Below are positions 3,761-64,000 of a stretch of DNA of 64,000 nt, one piece after another; the stretch's first letter is position 1, and every line of letters starts with the position of its first letter. The stretch is taken from assembly GCF_041248615.1 (NCBI RefSeq), contig NZ_CP158426.1; one strand, given 5' to 3'. The stretch is from Escherichia coli (GTDB lineage Bacteria; Pseudomonadota; Gammaproteobacteria; Enterobacterales; Enterobacteriaceae). The notes under the pieces are model-generated. The model was not told the origin of the DNA and did no database searches. It saw only the letters and a list, made by a program, of their open reading frames with translations. The translations under genes were made by a program, and so were the position numbers.

Positions 3761-4789
3761 ATGACTGATAACAATCAAAATAGCCGCGAGCAATTTTATC
3801 AGCATATTTCCGGGCAAAACCTGACCCCGCTGTGGGAGTCACTGCACCATCTGGTGCCAAAAACGCCCAACGCTAACTGTGCGCCAGCGTACTGGAATTA
3901 TCAGGAGATCCGCCCGCTGCTGCTGGAGAGCGGCAGCCTGATTGGCGCGAAAGAAGCCGTGCGCCGCGTGCTGGTGCTGGAAAACCCGGCGCTGCGCGGG
4001 CAGTCTTCCATCACCGCGACTTTATATGCCGGTTTGCAACTGATCATGCCGGGCGAAGTGGCACCGAGTCATCGCCATAACCAGTCGGCGCTGCGTTTTA
4101 TTGTTGAAGGTAAAGGGGCATTCACCGCCGTTGATGGCGAACGCACGCCAATGAATGAGGGCGATTTTATCCTGACTCCGCAGTGGCGCTGGCACGATCA
4201 CGGTAACCCTGGCGACGAACCGGTTATCTGGCTCGATGGGCTGGATCTGCCATTAGTGAACACTCTGGGCTGCGGTTTTGCCGAAGATTACCCGGAGGAG
4301 CAACAACCAGTAACGCGTAAAGAGGGCGATTACCTGCCGCGTTACGCTGCCAATATGTTGCCGCTGCGCCATCAGACCGGGAACTCCTCGCCCATCTTTA
4401 ACTACCGTTATGACCGTAGCCGCGAAGTGCTACACGATTTAACCCGCCTGGGCGATGCCGATGAGTGGGATGGCTACAAAATGCGCTACGTCAACCCGGT
4501 CACCGGTGGCTATCCGATGCCGTCGATGGGCGCTTTCCTGCAACTGCTGCCGAAAGGGTTTGCCTCACGCGTGGCGCGTACCACTGACAGCACCATCTAC
4601 CATGTAGTGGAAGGTAGCGGGCAGGTCACTATCGGCAATGAAACCTTCAGCTTTAGTGCAAAAGATATCTTCGTGGTGCCGACCTGGCACGGCGTGTCGT
4701 TCCAGACCACGCAAGATACCGTTTTATTTAGTTTTTCGGACAGACCGGTACAAGAAGCCCTGGGGCTGTTCCGCGAAGCGCGTTATTAA
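3761..4789 (+). CDS. mhbD: gentisate 1,2-dioxygenase (bicupin)
   Basis: 342 aa; cupin metal-binding His motifs ([11 protein letters not shown]...WHDHGN); operon context with fumarylpyruvate hydrolase and maleylpyruvate isomerase. Confidence 0.85.
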
Positions 4790-4804: not shown

Positions 4805-5506
4805 ATGACTCAATACGTATTCGAACCACAAGCGCCCGTTACCGTACCGGTTGTTGGCAGTGATGAACAATTCCCCGTACGCCGCGTTTACTGCGTCGGA
4901 CGTAACTATGCCGCCCACGCCCGCGAAATGGGCTTTGATCCGGATCGTGAACCGCCATTCTTCTTCTGCAAACCGGCGGATGCCGTTGTTCCGGTTGCCG
5001 CTGGCGAAACGCTGGCGCTGCCGTATCCGGCGCAGACCGATAACTACCATTATGAAATTGAACTGGTGGTGGCGATTGGTAAAAAAGGCAGTGATATCCC
5101 GCTGGAAAACGCCCATGAATATGTCTGGGGTTATGCCACGGGTCTTGATATGACTCGCCGTGACCGTCAAATGGAAATGCGCCAGATGGGCCGCCCGTGG
5201 GAAATCGGCAAAGCGTTCGATCTCTCGGCCCCCATCGCGCCGCTGCACAAAGCCAGCGAAACTGGCGGTATTGATAACGCACCTATCTGGTTACAGGTTA
5301 ACGGCGAAGATCATCAGCGCAGCGATATTCGTCATCTCATCTGGTCAGTGAATGAAACCATCAGCTACCTGTCAGGCTTCTTTGAACTGCAACCGGGCGA
5401 TCTAATCTTTACCGGTACGCCGGAAGGGGTTGGCCCAGTAGTCAAAGGTGATGTGATCACGGGCAACGTCGAGGGCTTAACGCCTATCGCGGTGAAGATT
5501 GTCTGA
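4805..5506 (+). CDS. mhbH: fumarylpyruvate hydrolase (FAH family)
   Basis: 233 aa FAH-fold protein ([16 protein letters not shown]...GTPEGVG); position in gentisate operon. Confidence 0.8.
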
Positions 5507-8416: not shown

Positions 8417-8677
8417 TCAATAGGCCGCACGGTTGTTTGGTGGCGTCAAAATTGCCGAGGCGTTCCCTGAAGGCCGGGGCAGCCCACATGGATGTGGGCT
8501 GAGGGCGCGTTTTACAGGGATGTTACCTCGCGCCCGACCCGGTAGCCGTAAGGGATAAGCCGAGGGCACCGCGCAGCGGCGATTTTGTTCGCCAGAGCCC
8601 GGGGGTGCAGGGGGCGGCGGCGATTGGCCGCCCCCTGCGCGCTCCTTGCGCCAGTGATTATATGAAGCAATACACAT
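8417..8677. repeat. GC-rich palindromic intergenic element (not classic REP consensus)
   Basis: about 260 bp of very high GC with several perfect hairpins (CAGCCCACAT/ATGTGGGCTG; GCAGGGGGCGGC/GCCGCCCCCTGC); the 86-aa ORF on the minus strand is low-complexity Pro/Gly/Arg-rich and is probably not coding. Confidence 0.45.
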
Positions 8678-8747
8678 GACAGGAGCGCAACAGGATGAGA
8701 GACTGAAATATTCTCGTTATTTTCGGACCTGATGACATTAATTAATT

Positions 8748-8831
8748 TTAAAATATCATCTTAAATACGCCAGTCACCACCAGTAGCCCAATCAGGAAAA
8801 TAATCAATACAGCCCAGAGTATAATTTTCAT
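8748..8831 (-). CDS. yohP: 27-aa small membrane protein
   Basis: manual translation of the minus strand gives MKIILWAVLIIFLIGLLVVTGVFKMIF, identical to recalled YohP; below the ORF-track size cutoff. Confidence 0.85.
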   Translation of the reverse strand: MKIILWAVLIIFLIGLLVVTGVFKMIF

Positions 8832-9054
8832 TGGCGTTCCTTTATTTGTGAGTGCTGAATAAGTATAGGAAAAAACGAAGCCCTTTGCCGTTATCCATAA
8901 ACGATTAAGATAAATCGGAAGATATCATTCACTTAGTGTATATTTTTCTGGATATGTCGTTTTATTGCTACTGATGTATTGCCACGCGAAACTAAAAAAT
9001 ATATCGCAACACACGGTAATCTCCGCGCACCTTTTCTTACCTGATTATTCCCCC

Positions 9055-10491
9055 ATGAATCGTGATTCCTTTTATCCCGCCATCGCCTGTTTTCCGCTGT
9101 TACTGATGCTGGCCGGGTGTGCGCCTATGCATGAAACCCGCCAGGCGTTAAGCCAGCAAACGCCCGCTGCACAAGTTGACACCGCATTACCCACGGCGCT
9201 GAAAAATGGTTGGCCAGACAGCCAATGGTGGCTGGAGTATCACGATAATCAACTCACTTCCTTAATTAACAATGCACTACAGAACGCACCGGATATGCAG
9301 GTGGCTGAACAGCGCATTCAGCTAGCTGAAGCCCAGGCGAAGGCAATTGCTACTCAGGATGGTCCGCAGATCGACTTTTCTGCGGATATGGAGCGGCAAA
9401 AAATGTCGGCAGAAGGCTTAATGGGGCCGTTTGCTCTGAACGATCCGGCCGCAGGTACGACCGGTCCGTGGTACACCAACGGTACTTTTGGCTTAACGGT
9501 GGGCTGGCATCTCGATATCTGGGGAAAGAATCGGGCGGAGGTAACTGCTCGCCTGGGTACGGTTAAAGCACGAGCGGCGGAACGCGAGCAAACCCGCCAA
9601 TTGCTGGCTGGCAGCGTAGCCCGCCTGTACTGGGAGTGGCAGACCCAGGCGGCGTTAAACACGGTCTTGCAGCAAATCGAAAAAGAGCAGAACACTATTA
9701 TCGCGACCGATCGCCAGCTATATCAGAACGGGATTACTTCTTCAGTTGAAGGTGTGGAAACCGATATTAATGCCAGCAAAACCCGGCAGCAGCTCGACGA
9801 TGTCGCGGGGAAAATGAAAATTATTGAGGCACGGTTAAGCGCACTTACAAATCACCAGACAAAGGCATTGAAGCTTAATCCGGTCGCGTTGCCGAAAGTG
9901 GCAAGCCAGCTTCCTGATGAACTGGGGTACTCCTTACTGGCGCGGCGGGCAGATTTGCAGGCGGCGCACTGGTACGTTGAGTCATCGTTAAGCACTATTG
10001 ATGCGGCAAAAGCGGCATTTTATCCTGACATCAACCTGATGGCCTTCCTGCAACAGGATGCGTTGCACTTAAGCGATCTGTTCCGTCATTCCGCGCAGCA
10101 AATGGGCGTTACGGCAGGCCTGACGCTACCCATTTTCGATAGTGGTCGTCTTAACGCCAACCTCGATATCGCAAAAGCCGAAAGCAACTTGTCTATCGCC
10201 AGCTACAACAAAGCGGTGGTTGAAGCGGTGAATGACGTGGCGCGGGCAGCCAGTCAGGTTCAGACACTGGCGGAGAAAAACCAGCATCAGGCGCAAATTG
10301 AGCGCGATGCCTTGCGTGTAGTAGGTCTTGCGCAGGCGCGCTTTAACGCGGGCATCATTGCGGGTTCCCGCGTCAGCGAAGCCAGAATCCCCGCGCTGCG
10401 TGAGCGGGCCAATGGCCTGTTATTGCAAGGGCAGTGGCTGGATGCCTCCATTCAACTCACTGGTGCGTTGGGCGGGGGTTACAAACGTTGA
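9055..10491 (+). CDS. mdtQ: outer-membrane efflux lipoprotein (OMF/NodT family)
   Basis: ORF 8965-10491; start set at MNRDSF..., giving a lipobox LLMLAGC and 478 aa; OMF coiled-coil / beta-barrel architecture; intact single ORF. Confidence 0.8.
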   Translation: MNRDSFYPAIACFPLLLMLAGCAPMHETRQALSQQTPAAQVDTALPTALKNGWPDSQWWLEYHDNQLTSLINNALQNAPDMQVAEQRIQLAEAQAKAIATQDGPQIDFSADMERQKMSAEGLMGPFALNDPAAGTTGPWYTNGTFGLTVGWHLDIWGKNRAEVTARLGTVKARAAEREQTRQLLAGSVARLYWEWQTQAALNTVLQQIEKEQNTIIATDRQLYQNGITSSVEGVETDINASKTRQQLDDVAGKMKIIEARLSALTNHQTKALKLNPVALPKVASQLPDELGYSLLARRADLQAAHWYVESSLSTIDAAKAAFYPDINLMAFLQQDALHLSDLFRHSAQQMGVTAGLTLPIFDSGRLNANLDIAKAESNLSIASYNKAVVEAVNDVARAASQVQTLAEKNQHQAQIERDALRVVGLAQARFNAGIIAGSRVSEARIPALRERANGLLLQGQWLDASIQLTGALGGGYKR

Positions 10492-52519: not shown

Positions 52520-52600
52520 AACCAAACGACTCGGGGTGCCCTTCTGCGTGAAGGCTGAGAAATACCCGTATCACCTGATCTGGATAATGCCAGCGTAGGT
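52520..52600 (+). ncRNA. TPP riboswitch aptamer (thi-box) of the thiM leader
   Basis: AACCAAACGACTCGGGGTGCCCTTCTGCGTGAAGGCTGAGAAATACCCGTATCACCTGATCTGGATAATGCCAGCGTAGG matches the recalled E. coli thiM TPP aptamer; similarity ends at about 52600. Confidence 0.85.
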
Positions 52601-52654
52601 TGCCAACATTCTGATTAGTATTCATGTGGTTACATTTCTTTTTGTCCGTGTGTA

Positions 52655-53986
52655 ATGCACCTAATGTACAAAAAGAGCGTAAACATGAGGTACAAAACTC
52701 TTCCATACACGTTTCAAAGAAACGGTAATTACTATCTACAGATTCGGCTTTCGAATGGTCGGATGTATAAAAAATCACTTCTCACTGACAGCTATCGTGA
52801 AGTCTCTGCTTTGATGATTGGTGTTGCTCCGTACATTCCTTTTGTTAAATCATTAGCCATCACAATCCCGATGTTTGATGCCTTTGTTTCAAACCTGATT
52901 ATGTCAAAACTTAGGGCTGTAAAAGTTCCGCTGCTATCACATCAGTCGGTAATTACCCCTGCTACATTCGAGGAACCAGCGACACAAGCCGAACCGCAAA
53001 ACATGCTAACTCTTTCTGATGCGTGGGCTATGTATAAAGCGGAAAAGGGTAAAACATGGACAAAGTCGATCTCAAGGGCGAATGAGCGTTACATGGAAGT
53101 CTTGATGGTTGTCTTGGGAGAGACAACTGACGTAGTTGCGATTTCTAAGCAGGACATCAAGCAGGTGATGGAAGTTGTTGAGAATTTGCCTAAGCGTGTT
53201 GTCCAACCGTATCGCTCAATGAACATCCAGCAACTGATTGAATGTGATGATGTATCACCGAATGAGTTAGTAGGAGTGGAAGCCATTCATAAGCATCTCA
53301 AAATCTACAAATCGCTTTTCAAGACTTTTCTAACAGAAAACAAAGATATTTTGATTAAATCCCCAACTGATGGGGTAGTAGCAGCACCATCTAAAGCAAG
53401 GTTTGGAGCATACAGTTCGGCGGAGATGAAGAAGTTTGTAGAGTGGGCACTTAAGCAGCCAGATGGCTGGCAGAAGTGGATAACATTGTTGTTGGCATAC
53501 ACAGGAGCCAGAAGGGGAGAAATTGCCAAACTGGAAAAATCACAAATAAAATATGATGAGGATAGCCATCGGTATTATTTCCTGATTGCAGAAGGAGGGC
53601 AGGGGAAAACCGAAAATGCTACCCGACAAGTAGTGATACACCCTAAGTTGATCGAATGGGGTTTCATGGAATACGTTGATCGCCAGTGGAAAGAACGGAT
53701 TTTTTCAGAAGTGGCTGGTACAAACATGACGAAGATCGGTAAAGAATTTGCTGATGTGCGTGACCAGCTTGACATTCCGTACTTAGACGATTTTGGACAG
53801 CGGAGGCTTTTGCATAGCATTCGTCATTCTGTTTGCTCTACTGCGATGGCTGGATGGGTAAAGAACATCTTGCATCTGCAACAAACAGTAGGCCATGAGA
53901 AAAGTGGAGGGATCACTAAACGCTACTTACATACGTTCCCACTATCATCAATTTGTTATGTTATTGATGGGATTAGTTGGGTCTGA
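52655..53986 (+). CDS. tyrosine-type site-specific integrase (island integrase)
   Basis: C-terminal catalytic box LHSIRHS...GH...Y (R-H-R-Y tyrosine recombinase motif); true start may be the Met at 52685. Confidence 0.75.
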   Translation: MHLMYKKSVNMRYKTLPYTFQRNGNYYLQIRLSNGRMYKKSLLTDSYREVSALMIGVAPYIPFVKSLAITIPMFDAFVSNLIMSKLRAVKVPLLSHQSVITPATFEEPATQAEPQNMLTLSDAWAMYKAEKGKTWTKSISRANERYMEVLMVVLGETTDVVAISKQDIKQVMEVVENLPKRVVQPYRSMNIQQLIECDDVSPNELVGVEAIHKHLKIYKSLFKTFLTENKDILIKSPTDGVVAAPSKARFGAYSSAEMKKFVEWALKQPDGWQKWITLLLAYTGARRGEIAKLEKSQIKYDEDSHRYYFLIAEGGQGKTENATRQVVIHPKLIEWGFMEYVDRQWKERIFSEVAGTNMTKIGKEFADVRDQLDIPYLDDFGQRRLLHSIRHSVCSTAMAGWVKNILHLQQTVGHEKSGGITKRYLHTFPLSSICYVIDGISWV

Positions 53987-57999: not shown

Positions 58000-58575
58000 T
58001 CAGCGTTTGATGCCGCTAATACTGGCAAGCATTTCTTTCTTCACACGAAAAACTGTAGCCCTGCCGCAATCACATAACTTTGCTATCTCGTCTGGTGTAT
58101 TCTTCCCGGCCTGTAACATATCGATAATCTTGTTATGTAGCTCTTTGTTCTTTTGCTTGCCCTTGTACTTCTTAGCCTCTTTAGCAAGAGCAATCCCCTC
58201 ATTGCGACGAGATGCGATCATACCCCGCTCAAATTCTGCAGCGGCTCCCATCATGGTTAGGATAAGGCGTGATTGTGGGGAATTATCAAAACTCATAGAG
58301 TTTGCAAGGAATTGAACAGTGATTCCACGAGCCACGAGGTTATCAATCATTTCCAGCAAATCGCGGGTATTACGTGCAAGGCGATCAATCGAGTGAGTAA
58401 CGAGCGTGTCACCTTCGCGGAGGTGTGAAAGCAGGTTCAACAATTCAGGTCTTTCGCTGGTGGACTTACCTGATTCTTTCTCTGCCACAATTTTGTCACA
58501 AACAGGTTCCAGCACTGCCAACTGACGCTCAAGATTTTGATCCTTTGTTGAGACTCTCGCGTAACCAAAAATCAT
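58000..58575 (-). CDS. serine recombinase (resolvase/invertase family)
   Basis: N-terminal catalytic domain MIFGYARVSTKDQ with catalytic Ser, C-terminal HTH; 191 aa. Confidence 0.85.
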   Translation of the reverse strand: MIFGYARVSTKDQNLERQLAVLEPVCDKIVAEKESGKSTSERPELLNLLSHLREGDTLVTHSIDRLARNTRDLLEMIDNLVARGITVQFLANSMSFDNSPQSRLILTMMGAAAEFERGMIASRRNEGIALAKEAKKYKGKQKNKELHNKIIDMLQAGKNTPDEIAKLCDCGRATVFRVKKEMLASISGIKR

Positions 58576-58589
58576 TTTCCTGCCCTCAC

Positions 58590-58665
58590 TTACGTGAAAA
58601 GTATCATTTGAATTTACTTAATGATACAGTATCATTTAAATGCATTCAACATCTAAATGATACTA
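58590..58665. promoter_or_regulatory. res-like recombinase binding site (imperfect inverted repeats) upstream of the serine recombinase gene
   Basis: repeated TATCATTT(A/G)AAT half-sites in inverted orientation (GTATCATTTGAAT...ATGATACA; TATCATTTAAATG...ATCTAAATGATAC). Confidence 0.5.
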
Positions 58666-59125
58666 AACGAGACGAGAAAAGCGAGTATCGTTAGGGAGTA
58701 CCCAAAAGAGATTTTTGATCGTGCGTTTTTTAGTCAATGTAGGGTTAGTGAAAAGTTCAGTACCGAGATCTGAGTTCACGGCATTTTGTCGACGGGGTTG
58801 AACCTGATTAGGCGAACGAGATTTTAAATCAGGCGGAATAAAACAAGTTGTACTTTTATCTGAGTAAAAGATCCCTTTAACTTTTTAGTCAGAAATCGTG
58901 ATACTAGGGGTTTGGTTATTTTGTGTCCTTAAGGCCAGTACTTTTAGCGAGGACGAAAAAACGGCCTACATGAGAACGCTTACAGTAACTTAAGTATATT
59001 ATCCAAAAAGTCACTTAACTTAAATCAATTTGGATGCAAAATCGCCACACTTTGCAAGTGAACACATACCGGGCAACAAGCAAATAAAAAAGGCCACTTT
59101 CGCGACCTTGTACCAGTACAAACAC

Positions 59126-59485
59126 TCATTCAGAACGATCAAGTACCATATATGCTGGCTGACACATGCTGCCCCGCTCCTGTAGCCAGTAGTAATCAAG
59201 ATCGGCAACACGCACGTCCAATCCAGAATCTACACGGTTGATCTGTAACCGTAGCCCTACAGTATCCTTGTACGATAAACCAGATTTAACATTGTATTTG
59301 TACTTAACACCGTTTTCCTGTTCAAACTGTTTAAGGAAAGGCGTCATTTGTTTCTGAATTTCTTTCAAACAAATAACCTCATTATCAATAGCAAAGGGGG
59401 GTTCTGTTTTTCCATCAGGTACAGCAGCCTGTAAATGAAAGGAAGTACTCAACAATAACAGCATTGCAACAGAAGTCTTTTTCAT
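59126..59485 (-). CDS. small secreted protein of unknown function
   Basis: 119 aa; cleavable signal peptide MKKTSVAMLLLLSTSFHLQA; 43 nt downstream of the membrane protein gene. Confidence 0.6.
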   Translation of the reverse strand: MKKTSVAMLLLLSTSFHLQAAVPDGKTEPPFAIDNEVICLKEIQKQMTPFLKQFEQENGVKYKYNVKSGLSYKDTVGLRLQINRVDSGLDVRVADLDYYWLQERGSMCQPAYMVLDRSE

Positions 59486-59528
59486 TTTAATTCCTTATTA
59501 AAGAACAGTACATTATATTTCAATGGAC

Positions 59529-60569
59529 TTAATAACAATATTTTATATTTCCTTCGGGTTTTCTCATGCATTTAATTCCTTCAGGAATATAATCAGTTAC
59601 GGGAGCAGGTCTGGCATCAGGTCTTGAAAGACGATTGGATATAGAAGACAACAGACTGAAAACACACTCATTAAATGATTTTTGATATTTATTTTTTTCA
59701 TAAAAGTACTGCATGGTGATTTTATCTCTTTCGTATTGCAATTCTTTGCCAAGCTGAATCCTATCCATATCAATTCCATTTCTCATAGCATTAAATCTTT
59801 CGTTCAATAAATTAAATTGAGATTTATTCCATTCATTTAAAGGAAATAAAGAATTGTTAAGCCTTTGCCTACAATTAGATTGCTCGATAGCTGACATGTA
59901 TTCTTTCATACTAACGCCAATATCTAAGTATGTGAGTTGTCCAGCAGTTCTATCAACTGAGTTATTAGGGTAAGATTTAATTTCAGTAAGTATTGACTCT
60001 GTTAATACTGCATTTTCTTCTAAATCTTTGCTAATAGTTATTTGAGCTTGTTCTCTTTTATCCTTATCAAATATTGAAATGTATTTCTTTACTATATCCT
60101 GATTAGCTTTCTCGGCTGCTACTAACGCATCTTGAACCTTCTTTTCCGCCGCTTTAACTCGTTGTTCTTCTACAAATTTCGCGTAGTCATCAGTATTTGT
60201 AATGTGATTTTCACGAGCGATAGAAAACTCTTTACTATCTTTAAAACCAAGTTTTTGTGCTCTGGCTCCATCGCTTGAAGATCGGGCAGAACTTGCCACG
60301 AAAGCGAGCACAATGATCAGTACAGGAACCGTATAATTATTAACGAGTTTATAGGGTAAGAACTTCGCTTTAAGCGTACCATAACCCAAAACAGCCCAGC
60401 CTATCGCGGCAGTACTTGCCAGTAGCTGGCACAATCCAGCGACGGAAAGCATGATTACCGACCAGAAGCCTGTACCGACTGCGAAAAGATCACCAAATTT
60501 CTCCATTGACGCAAGGAATAAAAACACTCCCCAAATGCCATAAAATCCTATTTTCAAATATTTACTCAC
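59529..60569 (-). CDS. 3-TM membrane protein with large charged coiled-coil-like C-terminal domain, unknown function
   Basis: 346 aa; three N-terminal hydrophobic helices followed by a K/E/Q-rich soluble domain. Confidence 0.6.
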   Translation of the reverse strand: MSKYLKIGFYGIWGVFLFLASMEKFGDLFAVGTGFWSVIMLSVAGLCQLLASTAAIGWAVLGYGTLKAKFLPYKLVNNYTVPVLIIVLAFVASSARSSSDGARAQKLGFKDSKEFSIARENHITNTDDYAKFVEEQRVKAAEKKVQDALVAAEKANQDIVKKYISIFDKDKREQAQITISKDLEENAVLTESILTEIKSYPNNSVDRTAGQLTYLDIGVSMKEYMSAIEQSNCRQRLNNSLFPLNEWNKSQFNLLNERFNAMRNGIDMDRIQLGKELQYERDKITMQYFYEKNKYQKSFNECVFSLLSSISNRLSRPDARPAPVTDYIPEGIKCMRKPEGNIKYCY

Positions 60570-60779
60570 CGCAATTATCCTTTAATAATTTTCCAAATCG
60601 ATGGTTCGTTCTATTTGTATTATCGACAATAATTCGTTTGCCTTTAGGTAGATCCCTTAAAAAGGAATCCCCCCAAAATTTATAGATTAGCAGTTGTACC
60701 ACTCTCACTGTTTTGTCACTCCCATTATCTTCTCTCAGGTCAAAAGTACGGACTTAAAGCCGTCCGTGTTCAGGTGCTC

Positions 60780-60900
60780 AAGAGTAGCACGCATATCAAT
60801 AAATGATCGATAAAAACGATCAATTAATGGCTTATTGATCGCTATAACCTATCAATGACTATTAATTCAATACAAATCAATAGGTAAAATCGATCAAGAG
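60780..60900. repeat. AT-rich cluster of ATCAAT/ATTGAT repeats with GATC sites (iteron/origin-like or protein-binding array)
   Basis: five ATCAAT/ATTGAT copies and four GATC sites within about 120 bp, in an ORF-free region. Confidence 0.45.
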
Positions 60901-61552
60901 GATTCGTCATCCATGAAAGGGGTTATGTATCTGATTTCAATACAGGGAGTATTAGCGATACCATCACGCAAACGCTCTTAAAGCGTAGCTACGGCGTTTT
61001 GTAGGGTTTTTGGTCATTCATGTGTGTCAGTAATGAACATCGCATTCAGGGGCTTCCTGTGCGTTTTGTCCGAAACACCATCATGAAGGGGGACAGATCG
61101 GATCGGGGTCGCTTCGCTCTGGTCAGTACTGGATAGTTCTTTTCCAGTAACTGAAACCGCAGATACCCCACTAAGTACACAAAGGAATTATTTGTAGAAT
61201 AAGTAATGAAATAACAGTCAGTTATGTACTTACTGACAGAACTAAAAACGCGATTAGGTTCGCTCTGTCAGTGACCGAAGGGAACGCAACAGTAGAATCT
61301 AATCCAGCGAACAGTACACGCAAGCGGGTGCTGTTTAATTGTTTTATCTATGTAAACAATGGGATAGCTATCAAGTACTCACTGCGTGAGCACTCTCACT
61401 AACTACCCGAAACAGTTCGCTTGCTTCGCCGCTCCTACTTTCAGGTAGTTAATTCGCTTTCGCTCGTTGTGATGTCCGAAATTTATTACCTATAGTATTA
61501 TAAGGTATTATTTTCCGGACATTTATGTATTTTTATGATGGTGTTCTGGACA

Positions 61553-63028
61553 TCATTTTTTGCTTTTTTGTACTTCCTTTTCGTATTTGTTCCACATAGC
61601 CTTTTGCTCTTCGGGACTGAGTGCTGTATTACCACTGGCAAGAAACACCTTGAACGCTTCTAACTCAAGCCCTGGGTTGCGGCTTTTCCAGCGGCGAAAA
61701 CGCTTAGCGTGATTATCATCAAGAGTGAAACGCTTTTGCTTATTCTTTGAACCTTGCGGCCTGCCTCTCGACCTCTGCTCATCATCAATACCGATATCTA
61801 TATACTCAATATTATCTGTAAGAGATCTGGCTTGCCATTCATCAAAAACATAAACAGTCTGTGTTTCAGTACTGTCAAAATCCCTTGAAATTCCTCGTAG
61901 TACGAACTGGTGTAAACTTTCGTACTCCCTCGCAACATGTATCGCCTCGCCGTCAATCTCAAAGAACAATTCGCACTGTTTAGCCTCTGTTTCAGAGGGA
62001 CGCATACAAGCGAGCCAGACGCACGTGAGCAAGTGTTGGTACTGGTTAAACCCTCTGGCATCCGGGCTTATCTCTGTGCCGTTTTTGAGGCTCTGAGAAT
62101 CGCTTTTGTTCTTCGTCCAGTAGAAATCCTGTCCCTCAAGTTTTTTATCAATAAATGAGTATATTTTTTGTACTTTATCAGGGTTATTAGTCTTCCATGT
62201 CTTCGATAGTTTTTGATTTTTTGAGAAGTAATAAACCTTTAATCTGTCTTTGAGAGCTGTTTTTCGTGTCAGTAATCCTCCAAGTTCAGTACTTTCAAAG
62301 AGTTCTTTATTGCCTTTATAGATCAATGAATTTTCGAAATTAGCTCCGAGAAAGGTGATTGATACGTCTTTGTACTTACTGAGATCTTTCCATGCGGTAA
62401 TATTAAGCTGTTCCTTTTTCGCATCGGTAAAGTACTCATTATTCATGATGAACATATCATTTTCGTTAATTGCTGGTAGCTGGTTCAAAATATTCTTCAG
62501 TACTTCCCCTTGTATTTCTGGTTTTCTTTCTGCCGCAATATACATATTTTTATCATCTAATGTCAGTACATTGTGTATTAATGAATTAAGAATTGTATTT
62601 TTTATATTAGTATCACCCTCATTAATATTCTGAAAAGAGTGAAAATTAGTAACGTCGTCAATATAAATATTACAGTCAGATAACAATTCAGGAGGAATTT
62701 TGAAAAACGTTTTATCTGTTATGAGTAATGTTTTATTACTTCCAGATGAAAGAAAGTTAATAACTGAATTAATAACACTTTCATCTTTTGGTACTGTATC
62801 TGTAATTATATACTCGCAATTATTGATTTGCTTTGCTGTCTGCTTAATAAGTTCTTGAGTGTTCTGTACTAAAATATATTTTTCAGTACTGTTATTGATT
62901 ATATTGCATATAGCAGTAGTTTTACCTGAACCACAAGGGGCGGAGACATACTTAAATTTATTATAAATAGGTGTGGGATTAATCATTTGTACACGCTCCA
63001 TATTGATTAATGTAGAAAGGTCAGCCAT
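61553..63028 (-). CDS. P-loop NTPase with C-terminal AT-hook (RGRP-GSKNK) DNA-binding tail, unknown family
   Basis: 491 aa; Walker A APCGSGKTT near the N-terminus, candidate Walker B NIYIDDV; C-terminal RSRGRPQGSKNKQKR matches the AT-hook consensus. Confidence 0.6.
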   Translation of the reverse strand: MADLSTLINMERVQMINPTPIYNKFKYVSAPCGSGKTTAICNIINNSTEKYILVQNTQELIKQTAKQINNCEYIITDTVPKDESVINSVINFLSSGSNKTLLITDKTFFKIPPELLSDCNIYIDDVTNFHSFQNINEGDTNIKNTILNSLIHNVLTLDDKNMYIAAERKPEIQGEVLKNILNQLPAINENDMFIMNNEYFTDAKKEQLNITAWKDLSKYKDVSITFLGANFENSLIYKGNKELFESTELGGLLTRKTALKDRLKVYYFSKNQKLSKTWKTNNPDKVQKIYSFIDKKLEGQDFYWTKNKSDSQSLKNGTEISPDARGFNQYQHLLTCVWLACMRPSETEAKQCELFFEIDGEAIHVAREYESLHQFVLRGISRDFDSTETQTVYVFDEWQARSLTDNIEYIDIGIDDEQRSRGRPQGSKNKQKRFTLDDNHAKRFRRWKSRNPGLELEAFKVFLASGNTALSPEEQKAMWNKYEKEVQKSKK

Positions 63029-63359
63029 TCCAGTGTCTGGCCTTTCGTTGTTTTAGTTATTAGTCTTTTTGAGTTGCGACAACTGCAAGAGAATGTTTAT
63101 AAACAAGTGAAATAAGCAGTTTTACCGCCTCAAAAGCTACAGTCAGTTTCGTAATTATTTTCGAAAGCATCGTAAATTTCACTTCGCTATCTTCTATGCA
63201 AAAATTAGCAGCCTGAGGTATTTAATGATTGAGATGTGGCCTGTTGATAAGAGGGTTTGTATTGCTTGTTCTGCTCTTTGTTAATTTGTGACTTATTCCT
63301 TTCACAATGATCGGCTATGTTTGATAACTCTGTTAGGAAATCACCTATGGCTACCATAT

Positions 63360-64000
63360 TGGATTTGCCCCTATATTTCCAGACACCTGTTATCACTTAA
63401 CCCATTACTGGCCTGCTGCCGCAGATATTCCCGTGGCGAGCGATAACCCAGTGCACTATGCGGATGCCATTCGTTATAATGCTCGAACGCCTCTGCAAGG
63501 TTCTTTGCTGCCGTTAACCCGTCTGGTTTAGGCATGATACTGATGTAGTCACGCTTTATCGTTTTCACGAAGCTCTCTGCTATGCCGTTACTCTCCGGAC
63601 TCCGCACCGCCGTGTTCTTCGGTTCAAGCCCCAATATCCGGGCAAACTGCCGTGTTTCATTAGCCCGGTAGCATGAACCATTATCCGTCAGCCACTCTAC
63701 TGGAGACGCCGGAAGCTCGTTGCCGAAGCGGCGTTCCACCGCTCCCAGCATGACGTCCTGTACTGTTTCACTGTCGAAGCCGCCCGTAGTGACTGCCCAG
63801 TGCAGTGCCTCACGGTCACAGCAGTCCAGCGCGAACGTGACTCGCAGTTTTTCTCCGTTATCACAGCGGAACTCGAACCCGTCAGAGCACCATCGTTGAT
63901 TGCTTTCTTTCACGGCCACTTTGCCAGTATGTGCCCGTTTCGATGGCGGTACAGCGGTTTTTCGCTCAAGCAACAGCGCATTCTGGCGCATGATCCGGTA
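63360..64000 (-). mobile_element. IS2 (IS3 family), partial; right terminal inverted repeat at about 63360, element runs past the window end
   Basis: terminus TGGATTTGCCCCTATATTTCCAGACA matches the recalled IS2 end; encoded protein matches the recalled IS2 InsD (OrfB) C-terminus. Confidence 0.85.
63371..64000 (-). CDS. insD: IS2 transposase OrfB (InsD), 3' portion; 5' end beyond the window
   Basis: translation ...[39 protein letters not shown]...[19 protein letters not shown] matches recalled InsD (DDE integrase core). Confidence 0.85.

Follow-up and report, generated by a model that had tools for sequence, protein, structure and literature searches.

The 50-aa open reading frame (ORF) that abuts an IS2 element at one end of the window, the stretch of 64,000 nt of Escherichia coli DNA analyzed here (assembly GCF_041248615.1, contig NZ_CP158426.1), is the remnant of a longer gene. 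In the reading we favor, with a probability of about 0.8, IS2 transposed once, and recently, into a genuine small gene that lies at the attR end of a Hachiman island of 11.2 kb, itself integrated in the thiM riboswitch. IS2 entered between codons 24 and 25 and split the small gene, the promoter-proximal piece ending after 25 aa, and the protein is probably inactivated, as the first of its two modeled helices is parted from the second. Since the small gene probably belongs to the integrase/att module, its loss would more likely affect excision or control of the island than the function of the neighboring helicase. Transcription of the helicase gene after the insertion would come from a weak site in the spacer, from read-through out of IS2, or from an IS2/flank fusion promoter. 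The insertion is an ordinary strain-specific IS2 gene disruption and constitutes no new system.

The right inverted repeat (IRR) of IS2 was read directly as 41 bp at positions 63360-63400, where it starts TGGATTTGCC and ends CACTTAA. This segment, TGGATTTGCCCCTATATTTCCAGACACCTGTTATCACTTAA, is the IS2 IRR in reverse orientation, and it is followed by the transposase frame on the minus strand, co-directional with the helicase gene. The element leaves the window at position 64000, with a further 691 bp outside. A complete copy was found in NZ_LT599825.1 of E. coli NRZ14408, which is 100% identical to the window over 10,960 bases. Both ends of that copy were read directly and give a length of 1331 bp (L002 4661-5991), and RefSeq annotates it as a joined CDS for an IS3 family transposase with a programmed frameshift. 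The published IS2 ends are imperfect inverted repeats of 41 bp on the right (TGG...TTAA) and 42 bp on the left (TAG...TTAA) (PMC3299598). The 5-bp sequence CATAT forms a direct repeat on the two sides of IS2 (L002 4656-4660 and 5992-5996) and is present as a single copy in the IS-free allele L001, as read directly across the junctions. The length of 1331 bp, the 41/42-bp inverted repeats, the 5-bp duplication and the annotated frameshift transposase are all those of IS2, the orfA/orfB transposase of which is made by a programmed -1 frameshift, and the insertion is a canonical transposition that is probably recent.

Table 1 Coordinates of the features discussed, as positions in the 64,000-nt window.
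Feature	Position	Strand	Basis or remark
attL core (80-bp repeat in thiM TPP riboswitch)	52520..52599	.	alignment of two riboswitch copies; attR copy beyond window
Tyrosine integrase	52685..53986	+	RefSeq annotation
Resolvase	58000-58575	opposite strand	island gene order
SF2 helicase-like NTPase, 477 aa by RefSeq start	61553..62986	-	ResIII, phrog_2467, fold matches; longest ORF from 63028
Spacer between small gene and helicase ORF	63029..63204	-	promoter-like site 63182..63154; weak hairpin 63130..63114
Promoter-like site GTGAAA-17-AATAAT, in spacer	63182..63154	-	9/12; found by both scans
3' remnant (codons 25-74 and stop) of 74-aa gene	63205..63357	-	intact gene in IS-free genomes
Promoter-like site CTAACA-18-GATCAT, inside ORF remnant	63336..63307	-	at least 8/12 in our own scan
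Promoter-like site TGGAAA-17-TATGGT, at IS2/flank junction	63381..63353	-	8/12; not called at 9/12; candidate fusion promoter
Target-site duplication CATAT, IRR-side copy	63355..63359	.	holds the ATG resembling an ORF start
IS2 (IS3 family), right-hand part	63360..64000	-	IRR sequence; complete copy in NZ_LT599825.1

The initial annotation had placed an IS2 terminus at about 63360, exactly at the start of a possible 50-aa minus-strand ORF, and this was accurate to within 2 bp. The ORF opens with the minus-strand ATG at 63357-63355, starts MVAIGDFLTELSNIADHCERNKSQ, runs for 50 codons (translation MVAIGDFLTELSNIADHCERNKSQINKEQNKQYKPSYQQATSQSLNTSGC) and stops at 63207-63205, and two bases (63358-63359) separate its ATG from IS2. 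Read mechanically, the frame enters IS2 and reaches a GTG at 63396 (63 aa), an extension without biological meaning. The apparent start codon is an internal methionine, Met25, and lies within the duplicated ATATG. The start seen beside IS2 is a by-product of the insertion site, for its ATG comes from the target duplication and stands as codon 25 in the longer native gene.

IS-free alleles were compared by means of a 660-bp query (62700-63359), which was matched full-length at 99.4% identity or more in 12 complete E. coli genomes; a 13th was interrupted elsewhere. The gene was intact, with 225 nt and the annotation of a hypothetical protein, in 11 of the 13 genomes with the upstream region; one carried IS2 (NRZ14408) and one an IS10-like element at another place. 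In IS-free genomes, which include KE55 and Res13-Sevr-PER07-33, the RefSeq gene (WP_001590328.1 / WP_001625470.1) encodes 74 aa, and its product begins MKMKEYYEEISLLKFKELEDEHDY-MVAIGDF. Its 24 additional codons, a Shine-Dalgarno site and a promoter are continuous with the ORF, which confirmed the truncation. No IS-free sister genome was found that begins the ORF at Met25 and has nothing before it. The insertion point lies between codons 24 and 25, and the 5' piece, now beyond the window, encodes 25 aa, MKMKEYYEEISLLKFKELEDEHDYM, and runs directly into the TAG that opens the left end of IS2. The distal 50 codons are thus cut off from the native start, ribosome-binding site and promoter, and the 50-aa ORF is a remnant that is not to be treated as a gene. 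The earlier suggestion that the element had truncated something upstream therefore holds for the flagged ORF itself, which lost 24 codons, its ribosome-binding site and its promoter, and fails for a separate gene, none of which was displaced. A displaced promoter had also been proposed; the small gene's own conserved promoter now lies beyond the window, with IS2 placing it 1.3 kb from all that lies downstream, the helicase gene included.

Other variation was seen on the same backbone. The Hachiman island is IS-free in seven E. coli genomes (99.7-99.9% identity). In the thiM-type island of PSJ-23, an IS10-like ISVsa5 (L006 3676-5000, equivalent to window 62998-63006) lies 12-20 nt before the start codon of the helicase gene, and in E. 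coli MB06101 an IS2 lies in the gap between the helicase gene and the gene for a 346-aa protein of a yggS-type island (L024 about 8600-9950). These two further independent insertions may reflect either a preference of IS elements for AT-rich targets or recurrent selection. In the 5' untranslated region of the small gene, a poly-A tract (L001 about 4745-4760) lies directly before the Shine-Dalgarno site; its length ranges from A7 to A11 in L001, L003, L006, L020 and L021, E. coli islands that are otherwise about 99% identical, and this variation has the look of slippage.

The intact small gene has a Shine-Dalgarno sequence, AAAGGTGA, 5 nt before its ATG, and a conserved extended -10 promoter, ATGAAA-18-TGnTATAAT (10/12 consensus; TATAAT at L001 4790-4785), 55 nt upstream. 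The -35 element of this promoter is overlapped by an inverted repeat, ATTTCATT-N7-9-AATGAAAC, that is likewise conserved. Close homologs were found in Kosakonia and in metagenomes; they are 56-83 aa as called, share a common 56-aa core with 68-77% identity, and in all of them thiM is followed by the small ORF and then by the helicase gene. When 1.84 billion representative sequences were searched with a profile, six matched, and this added the distant homologs P0129 (57 aa) and P0130 (52 aa) with 37-49% identity. Scans with the conserved DNA motifs gave no matches in two scans of genome contigs, and in metagenomes returned near-identical E. coli copies and one already-known locus, with no added diversity. 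In E. coli, codons 57-74 form a specific, unconserved tail that arose by read-through of an ancestral TAA, now TAC, and that varies by frameshift.

AlphaFold2, run with eight sequences, predicted one helix from residue 2 to 28 and a second from 30 to 56, with block-mean pLDDT values of 79-94 for residues 1-50, and left the tail (58-74) disordered. Counted from the homolog sequences, the net charge is -3 to -6, and the protein is modeled as an acidic two-helix hairpin. No match was found in Pfam, NCBIfam or PHROG, and a fold search of the model against the PDB gave nothing (best E = 8.8). A PADLOC match of the 74-aa protein to PtuA (E = 0.005, 14 bits) was rejected as a low-complexity helical match. 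With so small a family, and with no known family or fold matched, any function given to the protein is a guess.

The island that carries the gene is bounded by an 80-bp direct repeat in the thiM TPP riboswitch and measures 11,249 bp without IS2, with a GC content of 36% compared to 51% for the chromosome. From attL it consists of the tyrosine integrase gene, HamA/HamB, a resolvase gene, genes for proteins of 119 and 346 aa, a gap of about 980 nt and the helicase gene (61553-62986), after which follow a 176-nt spacer, the small gene, about 420 nt of non-coding DNA, attR and thiM. The Hachiman cargo was confirmed by Pfam HamA (DUF1837; 1e-62) and by PADLOC HamA (2e-120) and HamB (8e-296). Rfam placed a TPP riboswitch at 52522-52617, and apart from the two TPP copies it had no match in the upstream region or anywhere in the island.

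The initial annotation had considered an upstream regulatory gene of the NTPase module, and the distribution of the ORF does not support such a role for it. Its occurrence was confined to thiM-integrated islands with an integrase 88-95% identical in amino acid sequence to that of the window, and there it occurs with or without the helicase backbone. In L028 and L029 the small ORF lies near attR together with a 94.6%-identical integrase, and the interior of these islands, which lack the helicase, is taken up by a module of the CI/Cro type with TIR and STAND cargo. Conversely, the backbone from the resolvase to the helicase (58030-63068) recurs in E. coli yggS islands with 96-97% identity, a related backbone at ybaA has about 89% identity at the 5' end of the helicase gene, and homologous backbones across Enterobacterales have a large serine recombinase or another tyrosine integrase as their neighbor and in every case lack the small ORF. 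The island types cease to be homologous at window position 63068. This double dissociation, ORF without helicase and helicase without ORF, assigns the small gene to the integrase/att module, and the acidic protein has no recognizable DNA-binding domain that would suit a regulator.

After excision, the small gene would face the integrase gene across attP, with divergent transcription. It is co-inherited with one integrase and its att site, as is expected of an excisionase or recombination directionality factor, but it is not the small basic DNA-binding protein with a winged helix or helix-turn-helix (HTH) that such factors are. We have not filed it as a classical Xis because it is acidic and lacks a DNA-binding fold. 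A bolder proposal, that it is an unrecognized accessory or directionality factor of the thiM-riboswitch integrases and that IS2 both locks the Hachiman island in place and gives the helicase operon a constitutive fusion promoter of the circle-junction kind, appears quite unlikely.

Several further features of the island frame were observed. In three E. coli genomes (H49-H51) the same thiM frame carries a gene with a NACHT domain in place of Hachiman, and relatives in Kosakonia and metagenomes carry a Lamassu-like set, mSLOG/DUF488/DuOB, PAAR-pyocin with an immunity gene, or SMODS; cargo is swapped inside a constant frame. The TPP riboswitch aptamer at attL scores 58 bits, above the Rfam gathering threshold, matches the full-length model and lies 68 nt upstream of the integrase start; the integrase, standing behind the native thiM promoter, might be expressed through a thiamine-sensing leader. 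About 100 bp beside attR (L001 5040-5150, equivalent to about 65075-65185 with IS2) are highly conserved and contain TTGCAT-17-TAAGCT facing thiM. With the native thiMD promoter displaced to attL, this looks like a substitute provided by the island. Repeats of the type GGGGTAC / GAGGTAC(AAAA) near attR (L001 about 5040-5075) and attL (window about 52700-52720), conserved amid diverged non-coding DNA, are candidate arm-type binding sites for the integrase.

Promoters that could serve the helicase after the insertion were sought with a consensus scan at a threshold of 9/12 and with a scan of our own at 8/12 or more, the latter on the minus strand from 63450 to 62980, which gave three sites (Table 1). 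No convincing promoter was found, by inspection or by either scan, in the leader common to all island types (62987-63068). At the junction site the -35 hexamer TGGAAA lies in the IRR, and the -10 hexamer TATGGT (4/6) lies in the flank and overlaps the duplication and the ATG. The promoter at the IS2 circle junction needs a 17-bp spacer, which is made by a 1-bp junction spacer (PMC3299598), and from this 17-bp rule and the left end TAGACT, rather than from a published figure, we infer that the -35 element of the IRR is TGGAAA. An outward -35 element in the IS end and a -10 element 17 bp away in the flank are therefore both present, as in documented IS2 fusion promoters and the circle-junction promoter. 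The outward -35 element of the IRR was used in the activation of ampC (Jaurin & Normark 1983) and of acrEF, reviewed in PMC9330008. A fusion promoter in the circle-junction register is thus plausible from the hexamers and their spacing. If it fires, the 50-aa remnant would not be on its transcript, because the -10 hexamer contains the Met25 ATG. In the native arrangement, the helicase operon was probably read at least partly from the small-gene promoter. The genes of L025 are closely packed, with gaps of 3 and 75 nt in the series of small ORF, 91-aa ORF and helicase gene, and in islands with a serine recombinase about 100 nt separate the end of its gene from the helicase gene. The helicase may also never have depended on an upstream promoter, since the spacer holds a 9/12 promoter-like site of its own.

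Three other explanations were weighed against the disruption of a genuine gene by IS2. The small ORF could be no gene at all but a conserved non-coding att arm or helicase leader, over-called by PGAP, in which case IS2 would be neutral. Among the three close lineages the DNA does not argue strongly for coding: non-coding flanks are as well or better conserved (85-89%), dN/dS is 0.29-0.66, substitutions are not concentrated at third positions and codon-position bias is weak. The family also has very few members and resembles no known family or fold, and in E. coli the protein ends in a frameshift-variable tail beyond the ancestral stop. With the flanks of the close homologs equally conserved and their codon bias weak, the coding evidence comes mainly from the two distant lineages. 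Around the gene in their islands, L025 and L028, the DNA can essentially no longer be aligned, and yet the frame, the length of 52-57 aa, the start, the Shine-Dalgarno site, the promoter ((A/T)TGAAA-18-TATACT) and GTACC repeats near att have been kept. For these distant homologs dN/dS is 0.19-0.53 with dS of 0.9 or above, synonymous sites being saturated. The 56 codons are free of indels and stops in five lineages, whereas the flanks have indels. We consider it very improbable that there is no gene here, and very probable, on these sequence comparisons, that the 56-aa core is a real protein. It is still harder to maintain that the NTPase module has in the 50-aa ORF an intact regulatory gene that abuts IS2 by chance, some other upstream gene or promoter having been displaced. 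The position of the ATG 2 bp from the end of IS2 and the common direction of the ORF and the NTPase gene would suit that explanation, but IS-free alleles extend the ORF by 24 codons, a Shine-Dalgarno site and a promoter, its ATG is Met25 in the duplication, no other gene lies between it and attR in those alleles, and ORF and helicase each occur without the other; we regard it as extremely unlikely.

The remaining explanation accepts the disruption and holds that it was selected, either because a constitutive promoter resembling that of the circle junction freed the helicase operon from an operator-controlled, possibly H-NS-silenced AT-rich promoter, or because a costly or inhibitory small protein was removed. 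TGGAAA-17-TATGGT stands in the inferred register of the strong circle-junction promoter of IS2, where we estimate the chance of such a -10 hexamer at about 1 in 20, and IS2 fusion promoters are documented (PMC9330008). The inverted repeat over the native -35 element, the low GC content of the island relative to the chromosome and the two independent insertions in the same backbone in other strains also fit such adaptive rewiring. However, the insertion is present in only one of the 13 genomes, with no sign of spread, and IS elements favor AT-rich DNA in any case. The two other insertions differ from it in place and orientation, one being downstream of the helicase gene, and 150 bp of the IS2 right end alone had no detectable promoter activity (PMC12095673). 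Taken as a whole, with either mechanism, selection of the insertion is unlikely, and a plain disruption of the small gene is preferred.

The gene downstream of the spacer, initially described as an AT-hook NTPase, encodes a protein with the two RecA-like domains of SF2 helicases, in which the Walker A residues G19, G21, K22 and T23 and the residues D110 and D111 are invariant. An AT-hook-like GRP motif, G408-R409-P410, is also invariant and lies in a disordered linker. The AlphaFold2 model (pLDDT 81) matched XPD (E = 1e-8) and DinG (2e-7) in Foldseek, with TM-scores of about 0.44. Family libraries gave only a weak N-terminal match to Pfam ResIII and a full-length match to phrog_2467, a family of unknown function; a profile search of the family against PDB sequences gave no matches, and the RefSeq names are generic ('type III restriction endonuclease subunit R', 'DEAD/DEAH box helicase family protein').

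The spacer upstream of the helicase gene is 85-89% conserved among three island lineages. A model with an attenuator or leader peptide was dropped, as the RNA of the spacer and leader was not predicted to fold significantly (z = -0.2). The helicase leader holds an inverted repeat, GAAAGGCCAG...CTGACCTTTC (63013-63044); it is conserved in the aligned thiM-type islands and falls within the segment (to 63068) that can be aligned between thiM- and yggS-type islands. Between the helicase stop and the gene for the 346-aa protein is an ORF-free gap of about 980 nt (60570-61552), with a GC content of 0.40 compared to 0.36 for the island, which is 82-92% identical at the nucleotide level in islands of Kosakonia, Yersinia and Klebsiella and has no match in Rfam; this gap could represent an origin of the backbone or encode one of its RNAs, a large non-coding one. 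A basic ORF of 91-95 aa lies directly upstream of the helicase gene in L025 (8178-8453) and L019 (8616-8903), the two being 51% identical to each other. It is a better candidate for a helicase regulator than the flagged ORF, and no remnant of it was found in the spacer of the window.

The event is one more IS insertion in an AT-rich mobile island, found in a single strain, and it changes nothing general. The analysis corrects the gene model, in that the small gene is to be grouped with the integrase/att module and not with the helicase. NRZ14408 is mainly useful as a natural mutant of an uncharacterized small gene, and together with PSJ-23, set against KE55 and six other intact genomes, it offers a ready natural allelic series for the small gene and the helicase backbone.

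Compared with the IS2 disruptions and fusion promoters reviewed in PMC9330008, the present case likewise has a complete IS2 with a 5-bp duplication, a frameshifted transposase and an IRR facing the downstream genes. Its target differs, being a hypothetical small gene and not a resistance gene. The small protein resembles lambda Xis, P2 Cox and AlpA-type proteins in its size (52-74 aa) and its tie to one integrase lineage, but it is modeled as a plain acidic hairpin with no match to HTH, winged-helix or Xis families. Full membership of the helicase among XPD and DinG is argued against by its TM-score of 0.44 and its shorter length (477 aa).

In E. coli, defense islands termed 'integrase-only' have been described, the mobilization of which is unclear (PMC10121019; Hochhauser et al. 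2023). The thiM island is similarly small, carries defense cargo with an integrase and a resolvase and no phage, conjugation or transposon genes, occurs in few strains, and has variable cargo at one site (here Hachiman, NACHT, Lamassu-like and others). The main text of PMC10121019 makes no mention of thiM, rcnR or yggS and does not describe the backbone seen here, and our literature search turned up neither this backbone nor a thiM hotspot. The island of the window is distinguished by its backbone, with an SF2 helicase bearing a GRP motif, a conserved non-coding gap of about 0.8-1 kb, two proteins of unknown function and a small resolvase.

SCCmec-type elements combine a large serine recombinase with an element-encoded helicase, Cch, which is MCM-like (SF3). 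In the sister islands a large serine recombinase gene likewise lies directly upstream of the helicase gene, with variable cargo downstream, an arrangement that suggests a replicative excised form. In contrast to the SF3-type Cch, the helicase described here is of the SF2 type (XPD/DinG-like), and in the island of the window a tyrosine integrase stands at the opposite end.
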